From Methanopyrus sp. SNP6 (GTDB lineage Archaea; JAADCQ01; Methanopyri; Methanopyrales; Methanopyraceae): a DNA stretch of 32,000 nucleotides. The notes beneath the pieces were generated by a model. The model saw nothing but the letters and a program-made list of their open reading frames with translations. It ran no database searches and was not told the origin of the DNA. The DNA is taken from the NCBI RefSeq assembly GCF_002201895.1, contig NZ_CP019436.1, forward strand, positions 1,059,867 through 1,091,866, given 5' to 3'. The number at the start of each line of letters is the position of its first letter. Position 1 is the first letter of the stretch. Made by a program: the position numbers and the translations under genes. Positions 5,486 to 20,776 of the stretch are shown in pieces.

Positions 5486-6182
5486 TCCCCATCAAAAATG
5501 CCCTTCTGCCAGATACCTCTTCTGGGAATGCCACTCCTACGTGGACTTGGTACCCGTGTTCTTCCAGGAACTTCCCCCTCATTCTACACACTTCAAGCTG
5601 ATACTCGACAGGACCCTCCGCTTTCTTGAGTAACTTACGGACTCTCTCTATACCCTCATCTACACCGAGTTCCTCCACGATCACGCGAGGGCTGGCCCTA
5701 CCGTAGCAGCAAGGTACAACGAGCACTAGGTGTGCGTCCGAGTCCACGGCCAGCTCGAGGAGCCTATCCGTGAGCGTACCGCACAGGTGTAACCCCACGA
5801 CGACATCGGGGTCGTTCGGAAGACCATGCTTCGCTGCCTCGTGAAGGTCGTTGACTTCGAATTCCAGGTTGTCAAGTCCCACTGACTCGACGTAGCGCTC
5901 AAGCTCCGTCCAAGTCTTGAACTCCTTGATGTCGAACCCGAGCACGTCACAGGATGGAGAAGAAACCGCGAGTGCCGTCGTCAGTGTCCCGCGGCCGCAC
6001 CCGCAATCTACTACCGTGTCCCCTGGTCTTAGCCTCGAGCATAGCAGCGTTAGCATGGCCTCAATTTGCTTCTTCTTCCTCCATGCGTCCCGACCGGACC
6101 TCGGAAACGCACATCTCGGTAGATACAAACAGCTCATGCCGTGGGGGGTTCGATACCTTAACTCCAAGTCCTCTTCCCACAC
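5478..6182 (-). CDS. Class I SAM-dependent methyltransferase (Methyltransf_32-like)
   Basis: Motif I is GDTVVDCGCGRGTLT, followed by VLGFDI and VVGLHLCGTLTDRLLELAV, the LHaCG..tD hallmark of that MTase subfamily. It is convergent with sui1 (8-nt overlap) and divergent from rnp1. Confidence 0.7.
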   Translation of the reverse strand: MWEEDLELRYRTPHGMSCLYLPRCAFPRSGRDAWRKKKQIEAMLTLLCSRLRPGDTVVDCGCGRGTLTTALAVSSPSCDVLGFDIKEFKTWTELERYVESVGLDNLEFEVNDLHEAAKHGLPNDPDVVVGLHLCGTLTDRLLELAVDSDAHLVLVVPCCYGRASPRVIVEELGVDEGIERVRKLLKKAEGPVEYQLEVCRMRGKFLEEHGYQVHVGVAFPEEVSGRRAFLMGIT

Positions 6183-6193
6183 CCCCAGACCCT

Positions 6194-6409
6194 GTGGAAT
6201 TAGTCGGCAAGAAGTTCAGAGTAGTGAGGGCGAACTCCCGGACTTACCTTGGGATATCAGGCCGCGTGGTCGGCTTCACCAAGAACTGTCTGGTCTATGA
6301 TGACGGTAGCGGTGATCAGAAAATACTCCCTCTTCGCCACATCGTGTTGGAGGTGGAAGGACTGCGCATGGATGGCCGTGTGTTACTCATGCTTCTTCAA
6401 GAGCTTTAA
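6194..6409 (+). CDS. rnp1: RNase P protein component 1 (Rnp1/Rpp29/Pop4), minimal 71-aa form
   Basis: VELVGKKFRVVRANSRTYLGISGRVVGFTKNCLVYDDGSGDQKILPLRHIVLEVEGLRMDGRVLL matches the Sm-like core of archaeal Rpp29 (eLIGlkv.vv.s.n....GI.G.VVdET.NtLvI....g....IPK...vF). I start it at GTG 6194. The long track ORF from 5954 would run antisense through the methyltransferase gene. Confidence 0.65.
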   Translation: MELVGKKFRVVRANSRTYLGISGRVVGFTKNCLVYDDGSGDQKILPLRHIVLEVEGLRMDGRVLLMLLQEL

Positions 6410-7570: not shown

Positions 7571-8899
7571 GTGATATTCGAGCGGGGGAGCCACGTGGAC
7601 GTAGTGATCGGCGCGGGACCTGCCGGCCGCACCTACGCTATGATCCTCGCCGAAGCTGGGCGCGAAGTGTTGCTGCTTGACAGAAACGGAGAGGAAGGAA
7701 TCGGTGGTAAATGCCTGAACGAGGCATGTGTCGTACTCGGCGCGTTGATCGAAGCCGCTAGACTCGTCGTGTGGGCGAAGCTCGGTATTCCGGGAGTGGA
7801 GTTGGACGTCGGGGACACCGACTTCAGGCGTCTAACACGGTCCATAAGAAAAGTCGTAGAGACCATACGACAACGGCTGATCAAAGAGACCAAGAGAACC
7901 GGTGTTGAGATTCGTCGGGCTGAAGCAGTGAAGGTGGACGAATCGCTCAACGTCCACACCAAAGACGGTGACGTTCTCGAAGCCGATAGAGTGCTGATAG
8001 CCACTGGTTCCCGACCGGCGATTCCCGAAGTAGAAGGGATGGATTCGGACGCCGTATTCACTTTTCGGGAAATTTTAGAAATGGAAGTGCCCTCAGAGCT
8101 CTGCGTAGTCGGTGAAGGTGCGACGGCCCTTGAATCCGCCTTCGCTTTCGCTGCTCTCGGGTCCGAAGTAGTTCTGGCGTACAGGTCTAGGATACTACCG
8201 AATGCTCCGGAGGAAGTACGTCGAGAGATCCTCAAGGATCTGGAGCTCGTAGGTGTCAATGCCGTCTGTGCGGGAGAACTTAGGGCGATTCGGGAGACTT
8301 CCAGTGGTGTGGAATGTAGGTTTGAGCGCGGAGCCACCGTGGCGGACGCAGTTCTACTCGCCACCGGCCTCGAACCCAACTCTGATGTTGCTGCCAACTC
8401 CGGACTTCCCTTACGGAAGGACGGGTCCGTCGTGGTGGATGATAGTATGAGAACGTCACGTGATGGGGTCTACGCTGCAGGTGACGTGACAGGGCCTCCA
8501 TACCTGACTCCCGTTGCTCGGTACGAGGGAACGGTTGCCGCACTGAACGCGCTGGGCAAGGACGTCCGACGGGAGAATCCTCTAGCTCCTCGTGTGATCA
8601 GACTCTTCCGAGACTTCGGCCGACTGGAACTGAGGGGGATCGACTGGGAAGGCTCGCTCCCTGCACCGGTGGGTGGACCCGCGTTTTGGATGCTTCATCA
8701 TGGTATCGGTGGTAAGATGGTGTGCAGGAAGCGCGGAGTTACCACCGAGGCGTTCATTGTAGCACCCAGAATCGCACCGATGCTCCCGTACCCGTGCTGT
8801 GTGGAGCCTGACTGGCGGTTGATCGAGGTTCATCCTACTCCGGATCCTATGATTGGACTGCTCAAGCAGCTGGGGCTCCGTAGGACGCTCGGTGAATGA
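7571..8899 (+). CDS. Class I pyridine nucleotide-disulfide oxidoreductase (dihydrolipoamide-dehydrogenase/mercuric-reductase-like flavoprotein)
   Basis: FAD motif DVVIGAGPAGRTYA; redox-active CxxxxC in GGKCLNEACV; NAD(P) motif VVGEGATALESAFAFAALGSEV; GDV motif VYAAGDVTG; HPT-like VHPTP near the C-terminus. The start may instead be GTG 7595 (GGGGGAG SD). Confidence 0.85.
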   Translation: MIFERGSHVDVVIGAGPAGRTYAMILAEAGREVLLLDRNGEEGIGGKCLNEACVVLGALIEAARLVVWAKLGIPGVELDVGDTDFRRLTRSIRKVVETIRQRLIKETKRTGVEIRRAEAVKVDESLNVHTKDGDVLEADRVLIATGSRPAIPEVEGMDSDAVFTFREILEMEVPSELCVVGEGATALESAFAFAALGSEVVLAYRSRILPNAPEEVRREILKDLELVGVNAVCAGELRAIRETSSGVECRFERGATVADAVLLATGLEPNSDVAANSGLPLRKDGSVVVDDSMRTSRDGVYAAGDVTGPPYLTPVARYEGTVAALNALGKDVRRENPLAPRVIRLFRDFGRLELRGIDWEGSLPAPVGGPAFWMLHHGIGGKMVCRKRGVTTEAFIVAPRIAPMLPYPCCVEPDWRLIEVHPTPDPMIGLLKQLGLRRTLGE

Positions 8900-8900
8900 G

Positions 8901-10907
8901 TCATCTGATCTGCTCTCCGGGCTCCACTTCCCTCTTACTTTCGTCGATAGTCAACAATGCGGGTTCGTCCCCAACGGCCAGTATCATCGCTTCCGACCGT
9001 ACGCCAAACATCTCTTTGGGCTGGATGTTAGTTAGCACGACCACCTTACGTCCGACGAGTTCCTCCGGCTCATACGTAGGGTACAGTCCGGCTACTGCTG
9101 TTACGGTACGATCCCCGACATCGATCCGGAGCTTGATGAGTCGATCAGATCCCTCGATACGTTCCGCTTCTTTGACCTCGCCTACCCGCAGGTCCAATCG
9201 ATTGAACTCCTCGAGCGATACGTACTCATCGTCCGGCCCTTCGGACTCTCCTAATTCTTCCGGCAGTAACGCCTTAGCTTTCTGAAGGTCCTCCTCCGTT
9301 ACCTTCGGGAAGATGGGTTCAGGCTTCGGGATTTCCCTAGCTTCTACGTCCTTCAAGGCTTCTTCCCAATCGACATCATGTACGGAGTCCTCATAACCGA
9401 GGCTTTGCCACATCTTCTCCGCACTATCCGGAAGGAACGGGGCTAACATTATAGCTAGTGCTTTCACGATCCTAGCGCACCCACGTAGAACCTCGGCACA
9501 ACGCTCTGGATCTTCGTCCTTAAGTTTCCACGGTTCATGTTCTTGGAAATATTCGTTCCCAAACTTAGATAGACGTAATACTTCAGTGAGCGCCTCCCTG
9601 AATCGGAACTTCTCCAGATGTTTCGTCACGCGCCGGTGAGTTTCTTTTATCCTGTCGACTATCTCCTGGTCAGTCTCGGCTTCGGGGACGTTCCCGTCTA
9701 AGAATCTGTAAATGAACGATAGCGTGCGATACACGAAGTTGCCTAAGTTAGCCACTAACTCGTTGTTCACACGGTCTCGGAAGTCTTCCCATGAGAAATC
9801 TGCATCCCTAGTGAGAGGGCTTACCACTATGAGGTAGTATCGTAGTAGATCCGCGGGGAACAACTTAGTGAAGTCTCTAACCCACACTACCCAACCACGA
9901 CTTGTACTCATCTTCTCTCCTTCTAGGGTCAGATACTCACCAGCTACGATAGTGTATGGAAGAGTCGCTCCGACGCCAATGAGCATGGCTGGCCAGAACA
10001 GAGCGTGATGGATTATTATGTCCTTACCGATGAAGTGAACTATTTTCGTATCTTCACTAAACCAGTAGTCTTTCCAGTTCTGGCCTGTTCTATTACAGTA
10101 TTGTTTTGTGAACGTTACGTACCCTATAGGGGCATCGAACCAAACGTAAAACACCTTATCTTCGTATCTTTCCAGAGGAACGGGTACTCCCCAATCTAGA
10201 TCACGTACTATATCCCAATCCTTAAGTCCTTCACGGACCCATTGGATGGCGTAATTACGTACGTTCTTAGGTAGATTATCATTGGACTTTAACCACTTTT
10301 TCAGATCTTCCTCGAACTCACTGAGCTTGAAGAATAGGTGCATAGTGCGCCGGACCTCTGGCTTCGATCCACAAATGACACACCTCGGCTCTTTGAGCTG
10401 TACGGGCTCCAGGTAGCGACCGCAAGCCTCGCAATGGTCGCCTCGGGCACCTTCAGCACCGCAGTAGGGACATACTCCTTCGACGTACCTGTCCGGTAGA
10501 GGTCTTTCGCACTCAGGACAGTAGAGCTGTTCGACCTCTCTTTCCTCTATGTACCCCTCCTCGTATAATCTCTTGAAAAACCATTGTGTCATATCTACGT
10601 GGTCGGGATTGAATTCGCGACAGGTGCATGAGAACTCGTCGAAATGAATGTTCAATCGCTCTAGATCCTCTTCGATCATCTCATGATATTTTTCCACGAT
10701 TTCCTCGGGATCCTTCCCCTCGAGCTCGGCCTGTAGCGCTATAGGGACTCCGTGATTGTCAGTCCCACCGATGTGTATGGCGTCGACGCCACGCATTTTG
10801 AGGAACCTCGTGTACACATCTGCGGGAAGGTACGTACTCCTAACGTGGCCGATGTGGAGCGGGCCGTTAGTGTACGCCAGGGCCGTAGTTACGAGTACCT
10901 TCTCCAT
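8901..10907 (-). CDS. metG: Methionyl-tRNA synthetase with C-terminal tRNA-binding (Trbp111/EMAPII-like) domain
   Basis: HIGH motif (PLHIGHV), KMSKS variant (KMSTSRG), Zn knuckles (CPECERPL...CPYCG...CEACG) and a C-terminal LDLRVGEVKEAERIEGSDRLIKLRIDVG OB domain. I prefer ATG 10907 (MEKVLVTT, GGGGGT 7 nt upstream) over the track start 10928. Confidence 0.95.
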   Translation of the reverse strand: MEKVLVTTALAYTNGPLHIGHVRSTYLPADVYTRFLKMRGVDAIHIGGTDNHGVPIALQAELEGKDPEEIVEKYHEMIEEDLERLNIHFDEFSCTCREFNPDHVDMTQWFFKRLYEEGYIEEREVEQLYCPECERPLPDRYVEGVCPYCGAEGARGDHCEACGRYLEPVQLKEPRCVICGSKPEVRRTMHLFFKLSEFEEDLKKWLKSNDNLPKNVRNYAIQWVREGLKDWDIVRDLDWGVPVPLERYEDKVFYVWFDAPIGYVTFTKQYCNRTGQNWKDYWFSEDTKIVHFIGKDIIIHHALFWPAMLIGVGATLPYTIVAGEYLTLEGEKMSTSRGWVVWVRDFTKLFPADLLRYYLIVVSPLTRDADFSWEDFRDRVNNELVANLGNFVYRTLSFIYRFLDGNVPEAETDQEIVDRIKETHRRVTKHLEKFRFREALTEVLRLSKFGNEYFQEHEPWKLKDEDPERCAEVLRGCARIVKALAIMLAPFLPDSAEKMWQSLGYEDSVHDVDWEEALKDVEAREIPKPEPIFPKVTEEDLQKAKALLPEELGESEGPDDEYVSLEEFNRLDLRVGEVKEAERIEGSDRLIKLRIDVGDRTVTAVAGLYPTYEPEELVGRKVVVLTNIQPKEMFGVRSEAMILAVGDEPALLTIDESKREVEPGEQIR

Positions 10908-10912
10908 ACTGG

Positions 10913-12280
10913 CTACCCCCAAATGCACCGGGCTACGTCCGTGAACGTCACTATCCGAGACACGACCACCCCGTGGCGTCTCAACTGCTTCACCATAGAA
11001 GGTACGAGATTCACCTCGCGATCGACCTCGGCTCCCAGTTCGACCCGGTAGACGCTCCCCATCTTTTTGACGCCGAGGACTCCAACCACACCGCTTGTAG
11101 ACTTCAGGGATTCGGTTAAGTCGCGTGGGGAACCGTACAGGACTCGCAGCTCCAAGATGTACCCGCGAATTTTACGGACCTTCGCTTTGGGAACCCGTGG
11201 TTTGATGCCACACTTCGTTTTCACACAGGCCGTTACGCGGCCGCCGGTGACGCGGATAGAAACCGCTTCCACTCCCGGAATTCGCGACAGTTCGGCGAGT
11301 ACTTCCGCTGGGTTCCCGTCCGACACGTCGACTCGATAGTAATCGTGTTTCGATGCCATCCCTAACGTGGAGCGTAGCAGTTCCGCTACTGGGAGATGGG
11401 GCACGAGCATGCCGAGTAGGCATAACGATACCGCCAGTATGCCCCTTCGAGTGATCCTGTCGGTTGTGGATGGGAGCAGAGAGGATAGGAAAACCGTCCA
11501 GAGGTACGTCAACGTATGATACGTCGGTAGGTAGAACAGGACTTGGCGGAACGCGTCCAGACCTCCTAACACCCCGAGCGAGGTTATCGGTGGAGCGACG
11601 GTTCTGATCCTCGAAGCTAAGAATATCGACAGACCCACGACGGACGGGTTTGCCAACGGTCCGCCGTCCAAGCACCCGAAGCAGAGCAGGAACCCCGCAA
11701 TCGACAAGATGACGGCTTTTTCGGTCCGGTCGGATCGTAAAGGCACTATCCACGCTAGTACTACGTAAGCTATCGCCAGCAAGGCGAATACTGGAAGTGG
11801 TACCCACGGTGGTAGCACGGACGACAGGGGTATGCCGCAGTGGAATTCGATTTTAGGTTCTCCAAATATTGCCGAAATCAGCGTTCCGAGACACGCCTTC
11901 ACGGCGTGACAGTGGTAAAGGGAGGACGTCTCTGGGCGCTCCGTTAGCGTGACTATACAGGTGCCTAAGCCCGGGCTGAACCCGGCTTCATACGTCATCA
12001 GTATCTGGAGCACCGGAGGCACCGCTAGGATGGCCACTATCAGCGCGTACGTCACCCAAGTATCGATCTTCGGGAGGGGTATCCGTGAACGGTACGGGAG
12101 TACGAGGAAAAGCAGGCCGAGGTGTAGGAGAAACATGACGTCCTTAGCTTCAGTTGACCCTAATATTACTGGGTAGAGCGCATCGTGCACCCTCCATTTG
12201 ACCTCGGAGTCGGAGATCAGGACTACGGCGGCCAGTGTCAAACATGCGGCCGATAATAAAATCGGCCCACGGATTCTCAC
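10913..12280 (-). CDS. Uncharacterised polytopic membrane protein fused to a C-terminal soluble domain (paralogue 1, fused form)
   Basis: GTG start at 12280. About 9 hydrophobic helices are followed by ~140 aa of beta/alpha-type sequence (YYRVDVSDGNPAEVLAELSRIPGVEAVSIRV...GSVYRVELGAE). It shares YP.(I/L).GSTEAK, (L/A)HLGL, ETSSL.H.H..KAC.G and (L/V)DGG motifs with ORF 12951..13802. Confidence 0.7.
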   Translation of the reverse strand: MRIRGPILLSAACLTLAAVVLISDSEVKWRVHDALYPVILGSTEAKDVMFLLHLGLLFLVLPYRSRIPLPKIDTWVTYALIVAILAVPPVLQILMTYEAGFSPGLGTCIVTLTERPETSSLYHCHAVKACLGTLISAIFGEPKIEFHCGIPLSSVLPPWVPLPVFALLAIAYVVLAWIVPLRSDRTEKAVILSIAGFLLCFGCLDGGPLANPSVVGLSIFLASRIRTVAPPITSLGVLGGLDAFRQVLFYLPTYHTLTYLWTVFLSSLLPSTTDRITRRGILAVSLCLLGMLVPHLPVAELLRSTLGMASKHDYYRVDVSDGNPAEVLAELSRIPGVEAVSIRVTGGRVTACVKTKCGIKPRVPKAKVRKIRGYILELRVLYGSPRDLTESLKSTSGVVGVLGVKKMGSVYRVELGAEVDREVNLVPSMVKQLRRHGVVVSRIVTFTDVARCIWG

Positions 12281-12333
12281 CGTTGGTTTGCCCGTTATTC
12301 CGTCTTTCCCTACCGCCTATTAACGTTCCCCGG

Positions 12334-12957
12334 TCATAGAACGTATCCCCACTTTACCGGCGTCACGTTGGCGATCCCCACAGGCTTTAGACCGGCTATC
12401 TTCAGTGCGCCAGTAATCGAGTAAGCCACCGGGTACTCCTTCTCTAACGAGGCGACTTCGAATACGTACACCGAACCTCGGCGTTCCACTTTGAATACTG
12501 CGAGAATCGTCGGAGCACTCGCCACTTTGCGTGCAGCTACACTCGCCGGGATCTTCGGATCCTCCGTGGCAACTTCAACCACATAAGCGTTCACGGAGTT
12601 CAAGAATACTGCCGGTGCTTTTCCGAGACCCTCTTTCCTTAACGCCTGACTCAGTTCTTGCGTTAAATCGTACTTCGACACCGGAGTGGGCGCCTTCACT
12701 ATGATATACGCGTCACACGATGAAGGCGCTGTTCTAACTCCTCCCACCCTGATCACATAAGGACACTTAAGCAGTGCCCGTTTAACCTCCTCGGGCTTCA
12801 CCGACCCCTTGACGTTTGTAATCGCCACGTGATAACACCCGACTCTGGCTCCCTTTGAAGAGATCGACCACTGGTAAGCTATCACTCCCATCAACGCACC
12901 GATAGAGGCCGCCGAAATGAGTAGGACGGCTACGATTTTAGTCCTCAACACTACCAC
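12334..12957 (-). CDS. Membrane-anchored protein homologous to the C-terminal domain of paralogue 1 (paralogue 2, split soluble part)
   Basis: I start it at GTG 12957 (AGGAGG 5 nt upstream; it overlaps the TAG of the upstream gene). It has one N-terminal TM (IVAVLLISAASIGALMGVIAY) followed by CYHVAITNVKGSVKPEEVKRALLKCPYVIRV...GSVYVFEVASLE, which parallels the C-terminus of 10913..12280. The track ORF extends to 13140 inside the upstream gene. Confidence 0.6.
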   Translation of the reverse strand: MVVLRTKIVAVLLISAASIGALMGVIAYQWSISSKGARVGCYHVAITNVKGSVKPEEVKRALLKCPYVIRVGGVRTAPSSCDAYIIVKAPTPVSKYDLTQELSQALRKEGLGKAPAVFLNSVNAYVVEVATEDPKIPASVAARKVASAPTILAVFKVERRGSVYVFEVASLEKEYPVAYSITGALKIAGLKPVGIANVTPVKWGYVL

Positions 12958-13802
12958 CCCTGCCTCCTTGCGATCGCGGTCATCAGGAAGAGGGCCACCG
13001 CCCACACTACGGAGTATGGTGCTAATGGGGATGTTAGGTACCAAACTACACGAATCGTCGCCTGAAGGAGCATCGGTGTCAGGCCGATGAGGACGGCGAT
13101 GACCACGTATCGTCGTATGGGAAGCGGTCTTAACGTCCACACGATGAGCATTCCTAGTCCGATAACCATCGGTTTACACATGAACCCTCCATCTACTGCT
13201 CCGAGCACTACGAGAAATCCTGCCCACGAGAGTAGTAGCGATTCGACCGCACTCCCGCGCTTGAGGAACACAGCCAATGGTGATAGGATGGCTAAAACCA
13301 CGTATGATGCGATTACGACGGCGGTGAAGATTGTGGCGGCCCATGTGGGCATGAACTTAGACAGAACAGACCCATAGTGGTACTTAGTCGGAATCGGACC
13401 TATGATGTAGTTCATGATCTTCCCTACACACGCCTTGAGGGAGTGGGTGTGAACCAGCGAGGAGGTCTCACCGACCGACGATCCTCCGGATACGACGACC
13501 AAAGTACCAGCTTTCAGGCCGTACGGGGTGTTGTATTGTAGTATCATCTGGGCTAGGTAGGGACTAGTAATGATCAGAAGCGTAATACATAGTATCAGTC
13601 TCCTCGAAGCGAGGGTCTCGGTCCATCGACTCGGCATCGAGGGGAATGACCAAAGCAATAGGCACATCAGCCCGAGATGGGCTAGTAGTATAGCAGGTTT
13701 AGCCTCGGTGGATCCCGTTAGAAGTGGGTAGAAGAACTCCCTAAAGATTCCATCGAGAGGCGTATCGGTCAGAATAAGGGTGGCAGAGATCAAGAGTAAC
13801 AC
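12951..13802 (-). CDS. Uncharacterised polytopic membrane protein (paralogue 2, split membrane part)
   Basis: 283 aa and about 8 TM helices. It is alignable along its length with residues ~30-300 of 10913..12280 (FYPLLTGSTEAKPAILLAHLGL; GETSSLVHTHSLKACVGKI; GAVDGGF). Confidence 0.7.
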   Translation of the reverse strand: MLLLISATLILTDTPLDGIFREFFYPLLTGSTEAKPAILLAHLGLMCLLLWSFPSMPSRWTETLASRRLILCITLLIITSPYLAQMILQYNTPYGLKAGTLVVVSGGSSVGETSSLVHTHSLKACVGKIMNYIIGPIPTKYHYGSVLSKFMPTWAATIFTAVVIASYVVLAILSPLAVFLKRGSAVESLLLSWAGFLVVLGAVDGGFMCKPMVIGLGMLIVWTLRPLPIRRYVVIAVLIGLTPMLLQATIRVVWYLTSPLAPYSVVWAVALFLMTAIARRQGW

Positions 13803-17531: not shown

Positions 17532-17813
17532 TCATCTGCGGCGGCGGGGTCGACCCCGCCGCCTACGGGGAGGCCTCCGCCGCCGTTTAGGTGGTATGAA
17601 AAGCTCCTTCCCGACGAACCTCTCGAGGTGGTGTCGAGACTTATCTCGGACGGCCACGTAGGGCTTATCCGCAGGTCCAAAAACGTCTACAATAACACCT
17701 ACGCGCTCACGACGGCGAGTTACAACGGGTGCCCCTAAAGGCGGTACGTGATCGGCCCTCGCGATGAGATTTCCCCTGGGCGTAACGTGGAGGGCGCGCC
17801 CCAGCCTGCGCAT
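17532..17813 (-). CDS. gar1: H/ACA RNP protein Gar1 with Arg/Pro-rich C-terminal tail
   Basis: LGRALHVTPRGNLIARADHVPPLGAPVVTRRRERVGVIVDVFGPADKPYVAVR matches the Gar1 barrel (G.v.h....livk.....p.lg..V......iG.v.dvfGPv..PY). The gar1-tfb adjacency is the usual archaeal arrangement. The tail is KRRRRPPRRRRGRPRRRR. Confidence 0.8.
   Translation of the reverse strand: MRRLGRALHVTPRGNLIARADHVPPLGAPVVTRRRERVGVIVDVFGPADKPYVAVRDKSRHHLERFVGKELFIPPKRRRRPPRRRRGRPRRRR
17540..17563. repeat. Perfect 24-nt palindrome GGCGGCGGGGTCGACCCCGCCGCC
   Basis: Checked base by base: positions 17540-17551 are the exact reverse complement of 17552-17563, and the flanking pair 17539/17564 mismatches. It lies in the last codons of gar1, 9 nt upstream of the tfb SD (GGGGTG) and 23 nt upstream of the tfb ATG. 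Confidence 0.95.
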
Positions 17814-18370: not shown

Positions 18371-18398
18371 CTATGCTCCCCCCCGGGGAGGATCGGAG

Positions 18399-18791
18399 TT
18401 GGACATAAGGGTTCGAGAAGATGACGGCGACGTGATCTTAGAGTTCTATGCGGAGGACGGCAAGTCGGTCGAAGTTTCAACGCGTGCGTTTTACACGGTA
18501 ATATACCTGAACCGCCAGGATCCTATCGAGAAGACGAAGGAGTTGTTCATTAAGGTCTCGAAGATCCTCGGCGAGGAACAACCCGAGATCTCGGTGCGGC
18601 GAGAGGAGTACCCTTCGGGTCACATCCTGAATCCGTGGGTAGCCAACTCGGAGGGTGCTGACGACGTATGGCCGCTGGTCTTCGAGGTGAAATCGAAGGG
18701 TGGAGTAGCGTGGGAGTTCACGTTACTTGTTCCCGTAAGGTTGGAGGGCCGGCGACTCAGGGAGATACTTTTAAAAGTTTTCAGATCTTGA
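18399..18791 (+). CDS. Hypothetical 130-aa protein
   Basis: The track ORF 18198..18791 runs antisense through the ferredoxin gene in its first 170 nt. I start at TTG 18399 (GGGGAGGA SD 6 nt upstream). Coding-like composition (DIRVREDDGDVILEFYAEDGKSVEV...). No family recognised. Confidence 0.45.
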   Translation: MDIRVREDDGDVILEFYAEDGKSVEVSTRAFYTVIYLNRQDPIEKTKELFIKVSKILGEEQPEISVRREEYPSGHILNPWVANSEGADDVWPLVFEVKSKGGVAWEFTLLVPVRLEGRRLREILLKVFRS

Positions 18792-18822: not shown

Positions 18823-19758
18823 TTGTACCCGAGAGGGAGGAAAGCTACCCTCGCGGCCATCTTGCATACCATACTGCGGGACCGTCCCTCGACGCAGAAA
18901 GAGATCGCAGAGAAGGTTGGTGTCTCCCGGCGATATGTTACGGAACTCCTAAGACCGCTCATCGAAGAGGGCGCTGTTCGAAGGACGTACACAGTCGACA
19001 TGTCGAAGCTCAGACGCCATTTCCCCAAATTATTCGAGGAGCTCGGAAACTTCCTGTACGAAGATGTAGAGATGCACTTAGAGGGCGTCCGACCCTACTT
19101 CAAACGCATGACTGACCTGACCCTCGAGCAAATCGAGACGGCTCTCATCGCGGTCGAGGAGAACCCAGAACAGGCTCCTAAGGTTATCGAGATGGACGAG
19201 GAAGTGAACCGATTGGACGAAGAAATACGTCTCTACGTCCGGACGCTTCCAGTTCTCCATCCTTGTGAGGAAGCTGGCAAGGTGGCGACCCTACTGCTGG
19301 AGATCTCGCACTGTATCGAGCGGATAGGGGACTACGCGTGCAACATCGCGGAGGTGGCTGAAACACTCGGGACACTGTCCGACCTGCAGTGCTGGAGGGA
19401 CGTGCGCGAGGCCGCCCTGGAAGCTCGTAGAATGGTGGAAACCGCGTACAGCGTTTTCCTCGGTCGGGTGAAGAAGGAGGACCTGCGCGATGAAGCTGAA
19501 AAGGTATACTGCGCCGAAGATCGTGTCCACAAAAACATAATCAAGGCGTGTGAGAAGGCCGTTGAGGAAACGAAAGAGTTTCCTAAAAAGGCCGACCGGC
19601 TGTTCGGTCTTTCCCGGATCACGAAGGACATCGAGCGCATCGCGGATAAGGCCGTAGACGTTGTAGATTTCACGCGCGAGCTCGTGGAGGGTAGGCCTAG
19701 GGATCTCACACCTGAGCAAGAGATGAGGAGCACCCTACCCGCTGACGGCACTTATTAG
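18823..19758 (+). CDS. Winged-HTH + PhoU-domain regulator (phosphate-uptake-regulator-like)
   Basis: N-terminal wHTH (STQKEIAEKVGVSRRYVTELLRPLIEEGAVRR), then two PhoU-type repeats with EISHCIERIGDYACNIAE and RITKDIERIADKAVDVVD. TTG start with a perfect GGAGGTGAT SD. Confidence 0.75.
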   Translation: MYPRGRKATLAAILHTILRDRPSTQKEIAEKVGVSRRYVTELLRPLIEEGAVRRTYTVDMSKLRRHFPKLFEELGNFLYEDVEMHLEGVRPYFKRMTDLTLEQIETALIAVEENPEQAPKVIEMDEEVNRLDEEIRLYVRTLPVLHPCEEAGKVATLLLEISHCIERIGDYACNIAEVAETLGTLSDLQCWRDVREAALEARRMVETAYSVFLGRVKKEDLRDEAEKVYCAEDRVHKNIIKACEKAVEETKEFPKKADRLFGLSRITKDIERIADKAVDVVDFTRELVEGRPRDLTPEQEMRSTLPADGTY

Positions 19759-19769
19759 GGGGGTGCCGG

Positions 19770-20486
19770 TTGTATTACATCGGGCTCGGCGGATTCGGCT
19801 GCCGGTTCTCCACTCACGCCTCAAACGCAGGTCTTGAGGTGATCCTCTGCGCGGGATCTAGAGGAGACCTACTGCGTGTATCGGAAGGCGAGAAAATCGA
19901 GGTGGCCAGCGGTATCGGGTTCAGTCGGGACTGGTGTAAGGCTTCCGAGGAGCTGCAAGAGCAAGCGGAGACTATCCGCGAAACGCTGGAAAGGGTGGGT
20001 GCTGAGGAACCCACGGTTCTAGCTTTCGGTCTCGGTGGAGCCGTCGGATACGCTTTAGCGCAGCAGATCCTGAAGGAGCCTCCGGTACCCTTCATCGTAC
20101 TGACCACGGTTCCGGGAGAATCGGAGGACCCTCAGGTGCGTCGCAACGCCGCCGAGCAGGTGAAGAGCGTCCTGGGAGTGTCTATCAAGCTTCCCGTCCT
20201 CTGGGTGGACAACGCGTTAGGTGGGTATGAAAGGGTTAACAGGGTACTCGAGAGAACACTCCTCGACCTCCGAGACTTCCTGGGCGTGCCCGTGGAGGAG
20301 CTCCCGAACTTGGCCGGTAACTACGCGTTGTCACCTTCGATCTCCGGAGAGAGGGTGACCGGGGACGTCGTCAAGACATCGGCGGATGAGGTCAGGAAGC
20401 TGGTGGAGAGTAGAGAGCCAGAGGAACATGTGGTTCGACGCGAGCGCCGTGGGCCCGATCCGGAGTCGCTGAGAGAATTGTTCTAA
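19770..20486 (+). CDS. Divergent FtsZ/tubulin-superfamily protein: GTPase domain only, degenerate GTP-binding loops
   Basis: Collinear with FtsZ N-domain landmarks: IGLGGFGCR (T1), SGIGFSRD (T3), TVLAFGLGGAVGYALAQQI (T4/tubulin signature position), FIVLTTVPGESE (T5), VLWVDNA (T6), then an H7-like helix. It ends after a charged linker with PDPESLRELF. TTG start with a GGGGGGTG SD. Confidence 0.5.
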   Translation: MYYIGLGGFGCRFSTHASNAGLEVILCAGSRGDLLRVSEGEKIEVASGIGFSRDWCKASEELQEQAETIRETLERVGAEEPTVLAFGLGGAVGYALAQQILKEPPVPFIVLTTVPGESEDPQVRRNAAEQVKSVLGVSIKLPVLWVDNALGGYERVNRVLERTLLDLRDFLGVPVEELPNLAGNYALSPSISGERVTGDVVKTSADEVRKLVESREPEEHVVRRERRGPDPESLRELF

Positions 20487-20498
20487 GGGTGAACCGAT

Positions 20499-20735
20499 AT
20501 GTCGAGGAAAGCCAGAGTGACGCTCACACTCTCCGAGGATGCCTTGGCCCGGGTCCTAGCGACTAAAGACGCCCTCGAAGGAGACAGCATTTCGGCCACC
20601 GTCGGCAAGTTGGTGAAGTTCGGATTCGCGTACCTCAGGGAGAAGTTCCCTGAACTGTTCGAGGGTATAAACCTTGAGGAATACCGTGAGAAGGCGCGTG
20701 AGCGCTGGTTCGATTCCGGATCCTCTCGGTCATAG
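20499..20735 (+). CDS. Small ribbon-helix-helix (CopG/Arc-like) protein, tentative
   Basis: KARVTLTLSEDALARVLATKDAL..DSISATVGKLVKFG fits a beta-strand/helix/helix RHH pattern. ATG with GGGTGA 6 nt upstream, 12 nt after the FtsZ-like gene. Confidence 0.45.
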   Translation: MSRKARVTLTLSEDALARVLATKDALEGDSISATVGKLVKFGFAYLREKFPELFEGINLEEYREKARERWFDSGSSRS

Positions 20736-20776
20736 TTTTTAAACTCGGGTCAGAGGGGTCCCTCCAGGGAACCGCG

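Follow-up and report, generated by a model that had tools for sequence, protein, structure and literature searches.

A miniature tubulin-superfamily protein paired with a ribbon-helix-helix partner in Methanopyri-type archaea

A 32,000-nucleotide (nt) stretch of the Methanopyrus sp. SNP6 genome (contig NZ_CP019436.1, positions 1,059,867 to 1,091,866; hereafter the window, whose numbering we use throughout) carries, at 19770..20486 on the plus strand, a gene for a 238-amino-acid (aa) protein that we identify with high confidence as a functional, strongly divergent and miniaturised member of the tubulin/FtsZ superfamily. Together with the gene for a small ribbon-helix-helix (RHH) protein that follows it, this tubulin-like gene forms a conserved two-gene cassette which, again with high confidence, occurs only in Methanopyri-type archaea. 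The dynamic filaments of tubulin and FtsZ are thought to need both a nucleotide domain and a T7-bearing activation domain, and the Methanopyrus protein has little more than the first. We propose, at a probability of roughly 0.4, that the pair is a TubZ/ParM-style cassette in which a nucleotide-dependent mini-tubulin scaffold is linked to DNA through its RHH partner.

The resemblance to FtsZ is not itself new, since the orthologue in strain AV19 (AAM02076.1, Q8TX16) has borne the name 'FtsZ GTPase involved in cell division' from the deposition of the genome in 2002 onwards; a search of the searchable literature found no paper mentioning its accession. Other strains carry the name 'hypothetical protein', and the database label 'cell division protein FtsZ' on the AV19 orthologue is unsupported by the present evidence. 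What appears to be new is a truncated tubulin-fold family, restricted to Methanopyri-type genomes and metagenomes, with TubZ-like affinity, an obligatory RHH partner and a conserved tail.

Relationship to the tubulin superfamily

The tubulin-like protein matches the Methanopyrus sp. SNP6 protein WP_148688985.1 exactly and has two close homologues only, both from Methanopyrus. Against the Pfam Tubulin model (PF00091) it scores 12.8 bits (E=0.14), below the gathering cut-off of 33 bits, and even a weak match of this kind is found in just two of the nine members of the family defined below. Sequence searches of the PDB with phmmer and hmmsearch returned no significant tubulin match. By contrast with these results, a profile built from the three Methanopyrus sequences (the trio) and run exhaustively against 1.84 billion representative proteins found 17 proteins with E<1e-3, 11 of which contain a bona fide PF00091 domain aligned over residues ~2-175. 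The PF00091-bearing matches are mostly TubZ-like (TubZ_C_3, TubZ-like_C, Tubulin_2), with FtsZ_C in two. The remaining six, 230-254 aa long and without a Pfam match, have the motifs AGGCGx[KR], GS[DP]TGAHRD, G-x-x-G-A-[VT]-G and P-x-P-x-E in common and match the trio at E=2.8e-16 over 187 columns. Trio and Pfam-less relatives together make up a nine-member family, which did not grow when homologues were sought with the family profile in a word-indexed search.

Aligned by hhalign with PF00091 proteins and E. coli FtsZ, the family gave a probability of 98.4% and E=8e-15 over 173 collinear columns. An AlphaFold2 (AF2) model computed from a 19-sequence alignment reached a mean predicted local distance difference test score (pLDDT) of 81 and a predicted template modelling score (pTM) of 0.82, and it contains the six-stranded Rossmann-like domain followed by the core helix H7 that the fold demands; the model from the single sequence (pLDDT 35) was useless. 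All of the top 50 Foldseek matches in the PDB belong to the tubulin superfamily (CetZ, TubZ, PhuZ, FtsZ, tubulin; best E=1.9e-7), and the top 10 in BFVD are tubulin-superfamily or PhuZ/tubulin-like proteins, the named significant viral matches being PhuZ, tubulin and FtsZ. A preliminary description of this DNA, made by eye, had called the protein collinear with the FtsZ N-terminal domain; profile search, hhalign, model and Foldseek all bear this out, and neither the profile searches nor Foldseek with the AF2 model led to the unrelated Rossmann fold for which that description had allowed.

The same searches returned two matches to other folds. Residues 124-178 (20139-20303) resemble the BldD N-terminal DNA-binding domain (2ewt, E=0.0016; NF050110, E=0.0064), which we judge to be chance because the model assigns these residues to H5-S6-H7 of a tubulin fold. 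The best match of the family profile in the PDB pairs FGLGGAVGxAxAR with the GxxGxxG of NmrA (E=0.016); it is local, covers the glycine motif alone and sits at the T4 position, and we rejected it.

Within the superfamily, the E-values of the trio are 1.9e-15 and 1.1e-13 with two TubZ-like groups, compared with 6e-10 for FtsZ. These values come from small reference sets and are indicative only, and they suggest that the protein lies nearer to TubZ-like proteins than to FtsZ.

Purifying selection acts on the gene. Compared with the 65%-identical orthologue in a second genome (L010), the ratio of nonsynonymous to synonymous substitution rates (dN/dS) is 0.17, with dS at 1.47 and so near saturation, and even relatives with an identity of just 22-29% preserve the variant motifs. 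On the strength of the ratio we rejected a pseudogene, and the ratio and the conserved motifs together leave the earlier suggestion that the protein is a relic unsupported.

A nucleotide domain with a modified pocket and a conserved tail

In the AF2 model, strands S1-S6 and their helices take up residues 1-147. The T1 loop (G5-L-G-G-F-G-C-R12; 19782..19805, on the plus strand like all features of this gene) was located in the motif table and keeps the pattern G-x-G-x-x-G, with the canonical Asn changed to Arg (Arg or Lys family-wide); T1 of a bona fide PF00091 protein (P0017) reads GLGGCGGK. The T3 loop (G48-I-G-F-S-R-D-W55, within SGIGFSRDW; 19911..19934) aligns with TGIGCNRNRARA of a TubZ_C_3-type protein (P0016) and with GEGASKNRDKA, and its residues G50, R53 and D54 are invariant within the family. 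Because such T1 and T3 variants are also present in bona fide TubZ-like proteins, they are lineage-typical and not simply eroded.

The T4 region (G87-L-G-G-A-V-G-Y-A95; 20028..20054), placed by hhalign and the motif table, departs from the tubulin signature. GGGTGSG aligns to G89-G90-A91-V92-G93-Y94-A95 (GGAVGYA), and across the family the consensus reads G-[LI]-x-G-A-[VT]-G; the form GG[GS][TS]G is kept by 10 of the 10 retrieved PF00091 proteins and by E. coli FtsZ. In the T5 loop (P115-G-E-S-E119; 20112..20126), P115 and E119 are invariant in the family and in bona fide members alike, and the T5 Glu contacts the ribose in FtsZ. T6 (V146-D147-N148), a short S6-H7 connection and H7 (153-171, with N157) follow at 20205..20282, as seen in the model and the motif table. 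H6 is absent, and the short S6-H7 connection is common to the TubZ_C_3-type proteins P0005, P0007 and P0016.

The preliminary description had set T1, T3, T5, T6 and an H7-like helix where we find them, with the PF.fEG and IPNd elements surviving at P115..E119 and V146-D147-N148, and had T4 out of register by two residues. Its account of the loops as degraded holds for T4, and for T7, and fails for T1 and T3. It had also taken the C-terminal domain to be absent. The T7-bearing domain is indeed largely missing, but in the AF2 model a remnant of ~40 structured residues follows H7 (residues 172-213; 20283..20408, delimited by AF2 secondary structure and an L-INS-i alignment), made up of a helix (175-181), a beta-hairpin (183-203) and a second helix (205-213). 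The full domain and its NxDxxD T7 motif are gone: KTSADEVRKLV (202-212) aligns with NVDFADVRTVM of FtsZ, and the positions of T7 are taken by K202, S204 and E207 or, alternatively, by G173, P175 and E178. Pfam gave no FtsZ_C match in the tubulin-like protein or in the family members. One element of the remnant, N180-x-A182, is family-invariant.

The protein closes with a charged disordered linker (214-228) and a C-terminal tip (P229-DPESLRELF-238), together at 20409..20483, with pLDDT <50 in 220-226 and 236-238; the tail peptide reads RGPDPESLRELF. This arrangement, which had been noted as formally like the partner-binding C-terminal peptides of FtsZ, is conserved across the family, whose tails consist of an acidic linker and then DPWSLL, DPLDFL, SPWDIF or DVLDLL. 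Acidic-hydrophobic tails also occur in the TubZ-like proteins P0005 (DIDDIWDEFM) and P0016.

In the sequence, the residues for the contacts to ribose and base (E119, D147-N148, N157) and the T1 G-x-G-x-x-G are retained and the T4 Gly/Thr and T7 acids lost, and the truly non-canonical elements are the T4 signature and the T7 motif only. The protein lacks T7 and most of the bottom interface, so that it is unlikely to undergo GTP-driven dynamics of the canonical kind.

A conserved pairing with an RHH gene

The RHH gene (20499..20735, plus strand; 78 aa, an RHH core with a C-terminal extension) begins 12 nt after the tubulin-like gene. An RHH gene lies 12-78 nt downstream of the tubulin-like gene in six of seven distinct locus types, and it is found after the tubulin-like gene at all loci examined but one (L008). 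The downstream small proteins align with one another as a family, and they are 78-94 aa long with a conserved C-terminal extension. Their family profile matches CopG (E=0.002), and members match Pfam RHH_1, RHH_9 and RHH_3 at ~1e-5; an RHH protein on this side of the gene and a helix-turn-helix (HTH)-PhoU regulator on the other, the latter confirmed by Pfam, are the neighbours that had been named from the sequence. The pairing also holds in the reverse direction: a search seeded with the RHH profile alone gave 16 relatives, and all of those looked up are preceded by a tubulin-like gene of 220-254 aa. This constant pairing with a small DNA-binding partner suggests that the tubulin-like protein may tether or position DNA and not act as a normal division FtsZ.

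The genome scans found the family only in a 'Methanopyri archaeon' metagenome-assembled genome (MAG) and a 'Methanobacteriota archaeon' MAG. The sole member without an RHH neighbour (P0010, at 7977-8729 (+) of L008) lies 118 nt from a tRNA-Val(TAC) gene (7783-7859 (-)), and its tail ends in ...EDWIKRIGV, not in a tip of the D-P-x-x-L-L type. The RHH extensions (L001, L004, L007, L009 and others; for example L004 6834-7118) have a conserved (L/I)(E/D)DDW(E/D)E. Similar acidic-Trp motifs thus occur in both partners, as D-P-W-x-L-L in tubulin-like tails and as (L/I)(E/D)DDW(E/D)E in the RHH extension.

The Methanopyrus locus

Upstream of the cassette, 11 nt before the tubulin-like gene, ends the HTH-PhoU regulator gene (18823..19758, plus strand; 311 aa; Pfam PhoU 3.9e-26, HTH_24 1e-7). 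It is likely the first gene of an operon that contains the tubulin-like and RHH genes, with a TATA-like TTTTAAAA ~50 nt upstream of it. The association is confined to Methanopyrus, the other family loci being without HTH-PhoU. The tubulin-like open reading frame (ORF) starts with TTG, and a purine-rich GGGGGGTG lies immediately 5' of that start. At the other end, the sequence TTTTTAAA (20736..20743, plus strand) stands directly 3' of the RHH stop codon and is likely to be a T-run terminator of the cassette and/or the TATA box of argJ (start 20777). Its place right after the stop suggests an end of the cassette at this point and a separate promoter for argJ.

The flanking genes of the window are archaeal housekeeping genes (TFB, ferredoxin, ArgJ, a LOR/SDH-like enzyme), and the Methanopyrus order is TFB, Gar1, ferredoxin, a 131-aa ORFan, HTH-PhoU, tubulin-like, RHH and ArgJ. 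The order is identical in L010, from which it follows that the cassette is chromosomal and stable in Methanopyrus. Gar1 is annotated in L010 at the position corresponding to the window, and we assigned a Gar1-like ORF in the window (17532-17813 (-)) by that position; its tail is extremely arginine-rich (RRRRPPRRRRGRPRRRR). Without a match in Pfam, the ORFan 5' of the HTH-PhoU gene (~131 aa, ~18390-18791 (+)) is conserved in L010 (8641-9036). Scans of the window for Rfam families and tRNAs gave nothing, and a sigma-70 promoter scan, not applicable to archaea, was uninformative.

Candidate DNA sites and other loci

In one group of relatives (group C), 7.4 tandem copies of an 11-nt repeat (consensus CCCGGGCCGAG) occupy L004 5907-5985, and the array is also present in L021 and L022. 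It lies directly upstream of a TATA-like TTTTAATAT and the tubulin-like/RHH pair. The 11-nt spacing, one helical turn, is reminiscent of parC-type iterons. Elsewhere, between the PCNA and tubulin-like genes of L005 (4420-4446), there is an inverted repeat, perfect over its 12-nt arms and spaced by 3 nt (GCCCGCCGGGCG gag CGCCCGGCGGGC), that could be a terminator or an operator.

The surroundings of the cassette vary. Several relatives sit in ORFan-only contigs, in which 20 of 20 neighbour proteins lack a Pfam match reaching the curated cut-off, a setting that would fit mobile elements. One such neighbourhood (L001) has a 1077-aa ORFan downstream of the cassette (10348-13581), after two minus-strand genes and one plus-strand gene; it gives a weak JetC/SMC-like match (E=3e-4) that may be driven by coiled coil, and the other neighbours give none reaching the curated cut-off. 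The RHH gene of one chromosomal group runs with its stop codon into the start of a Hel308/Ski2-like helicase gene (RHH and helicase at 8757-9023 and 9020-11134 in L009, and at 6001-6258 and ~6255-8369 in L015-L017), which suggests co-transcription with a DNA helicase; hydantoinase and Alba genes are nearby.

A possible DNA-positioning module and its alternatives

The cassette may work in the manner of the TubZ/TubR or ParM/ParR DNA-positioning modules, a reading that we hold at somewhat below even odds. It builds on the fold, the TubZ-like affinity, the gene pairing, the tails, the purifying selection and, in one group, the repeat array, all of which were observed. In the mechanism that we favour we infer DNA tethering, a contact between tail and RHH protein, and self-association. 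An RHH dimer would bind repeated DNA sites via its N-terminal ribbon, and the tubulin-like protein would bind nucleotide in its modified pocket and self-associate. The two would be coupled through the acidic-hydrophobic tail of the tubulin-like protein and/or the C-terminal extension of the RHH protein, and DNA would thereby be tethered or moved. Without a T7 domain, any polymer would be static, or under the control of the partner and not of GTP hydrolysis in its canonical form. The cassette of Methanopyrus is a fixed chromosomal unit, probably an operon, together with the HTH-PhoU gene.

Several observations weigh against such a module. TubR is a winged-helix protein encoded upstream of tubZ, and the partner here is an RHH protein encoded downstream. 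The Methanopyrus cassette is chromosomal, with synteny kept despite an orthologue that is only 65% identical, and so lacks the plasmid or phage location that goes with TubZRC; tblastn found no homologue in annotated plasmids and phages, and scans found none in viral contigs. The repeat array is known from one group of near-identical contigs only, and repeat and tandem-repeat searches found no centromere-like array near the window locus. T4 is non-canonical, T7 is unconserved and most of the bottom polymerisation interface is absent, and GTP binding and filaments are predictions. The AF2 input alignment included bona fide tubulin-family proteins and may bias the model towards the tubulin fold. 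Finally, an RHH gene beside an FtsZ-family gene is the cdrS-ftsZ2 layout, which concerns transcriptional control and not segregation (PMC7439475).

That last point leads to the strongest alternative, in which the cassette modulates cell division, the RHH protein being a CdrS-like transcription factor and the mini-tubulin acting on the host FtsZ machinery. The mini-tubulin could cap FtsZ filaments, having a top face and no complete T7 face, or its C-terminal peptide could compete for SepF. Across archaea, cdrS is widely found adjacent to and co-transcribed with ftsZ2, and it regulates division (PMC7439475, PMC9871819, PMC8406309). The acidic tail with its terminal Phe/Leu is like the SepF-binding FtsZ peptide of M. 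smithii, NEDQLDDFIDGIF (PMC8178401), the AV19 orthologue is annotated as FtsZ, and the Methanopyrus locus is chromosomal and syntenic. However, cdrS lies upstream of ftsZ2 and encodes 61 aa with no extension (PMC8406309), whereas the RHH gene here lies downstream and encodes 78-94 aa with a conserved extension. The GID motif, nearly invariant in archaeal FtsZ peptides (PMC8178401), is absent from all family tails (PDPESLRELF, DPWSLL, DPLDFL etc.). The protein also scores nearer to TubZ-like proteins than to FtsZ, and several paralogous cassettes occur in unrelated contexts. On this balance, a role in division is somewhat unlikely.

Alternatively, the tubulin-fold domain might not polymerise at all and instead bind a small ligand or nucleotide. 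It would then be the sensor of a transcription factor, on a subunit of its own, and would control how the RHH protein binds DNA; in Methanopyrus this control would be tied in with the HTH-PhoU regulator. In favour of such a sensor, the pocket motifs are modified yet conserved (T1 ending in Arg/Lys, T3 as GxHRD/GFSRD, T4 as G-x-x-G-A-[VT]-G), the protein has lost the C-terminal domain and T7, on which canonical polymer dynamics depend, and the gene is tightly operonic with those of two DNA-binding proteins. Yet filament-forming relatives have a similar long acidic linker and tail tip, the HTH-PhoU link exists in Methanopyrus only, and we know of no precedent for a tubulin-fold domain as a transcription co-factor. 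We consider this sensor unlikely.

It is highly improbable that the genes are a toxin-antitoxin-like or defence pair in which the RHH protein serves as antitoxin or repressor. In favour of such a pair, the cassette consists of two genes, one of them for a small RHH protein, and is present in multiple copies and in variable ORFan-rich contexts. Against it, PADLOC found no defence-system match, the RHH gene is downstream and not upstream, the Methanopyrus chromosome keeps the cassette stably and in synteny, and to our knowledge there is no tubulin-fold toxin. Least probable of all, and already contradicted by the data, is an unrelated Rossmann-type (NAD-binding-like) protein or decaying pseudogene with chance loop matches, as the Pfam score far under its cut-off, the NmrA match and the poor single-sequence model might suggest: against it stand the hhalign alignment, the 11 PF00091 proteins among the 17 matches, the uniform Foldseek list, the low dN/dS, and a glycine motif that follows strand S4, as T4 does, and is not N-terminal.

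The scaffold linked to DNA through its RHH partner is thus our preferred reading, and it has a more far-reaching form that we regard as rather unlikely. In that form, a 'half tubulin', the nucleotide-binding domain alone, is an unrecognised archaeal machine for DNA segregation or positioning that assembles by its tail and not by a T7 interface, is coupled to DNA by an RHH centromere-binding protein, and exists in mobile and in domesticated chromosomal copies in hyperthermophilic Methanopyri. A conserved, selected, first-domain-only family with a tail and a dedicated DNA-binding partner might represent either a minimal tubulin-fold polymer assembly or a non-cytoskeletal use of the fold. The segregation of chromosomes and mobile elements in euryarchaea is little understood, and a tubulin-based cassette with an RHH adaptor would be a directly testable candidate.

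Comparison with known systems

The divergent, poorly studied families FtsZl1 and FtsZl2, which are FtsZ-like and in which some canonical elements are also missing, had been put forward as a home for the protein. T6-H7 is missing from FtsZl1, where a coiled coil and an alpha-helical C-terminal domain follow the N-terminal one, and FtsZl2 is full-length with all elements (PMC2875224, which does not mention Methanopyrus). The 238-aa protein keeps T6-H7, and its model has neither coiled coil nor alpha-helical C-terminal domain; its architecture differs from those described, and we rejected membership in either family. With respect to the cdrS-ftsZ2 pair, the differences apparent from its description are the reversed gene order, the longer, extended RHH protein and the truncated tubulin-like partner.

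CetZ2 (4b45) is the top Foldseek match (E=1.9e-7), and FtsZ and CetZ belong to the same superfamily. FtsZ has the arrangement of linker and C-terminal peptide in common with the tubulin-like protein, which differs in lacking an FtsZ_C domain, an NxDxxD and, within the tail, a GID motif. The highest Foldseek query TM-scores, 0.64-0.70, are those of PhuZ (3zbq, 3r4v, 9pm9), whose acidic C-terminal tail is important for assembly. PhuZ differs from the Methanopyrus protein in that its C-terminal domain is complete and its GTPase site canonical; its role is to centre phage DNA, and it is not known to work with an RHH partner.

The layout of the cassette resembles that of partition systems built on other nucleoside triphosphatases (NTPases). 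In ParMRC (type II) and ParF/ParG (type Ib), the NTPase gene comes first and an RHH centromere-binding gene second, with repeats of about one helical turn upstream, and the RHH proteins combine an N-terminal ribbon with an extra region that contacts the NTPase. Their NTPases are actin-like or Walker-type, as against tubulin-like here, and the likeness is one of architecture only and implies no homology.

With TubZ/TubR/tubC the comparison extends to the NTPase itself. The Methanopyrus protein differs from TubZ in lacking a complete C-terminal domain and T7, in its T4 (GGAVGYA) and in falling below the Pfam Tubulin cut-off. It nevertheless resembles the TubZ system in being a tubulin-fold NTPase that gives its best profile scores with TubZ-like proteins, with the same style of T3, the same short S6-H7 connection and a flexible acidic-hydrophobic tail, encoded in an operon with a small DNA-binding protein and, in one group of relatives, with iteron-like repeats upstream. 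A TubZ_C_3-type protein (P0005) shows the classical arrangement, on a phage- or plasmid-like contig: it is overlapped on its upstream side by a winged-helix TubR-like gene, and after it come a Rep gene and YopX.

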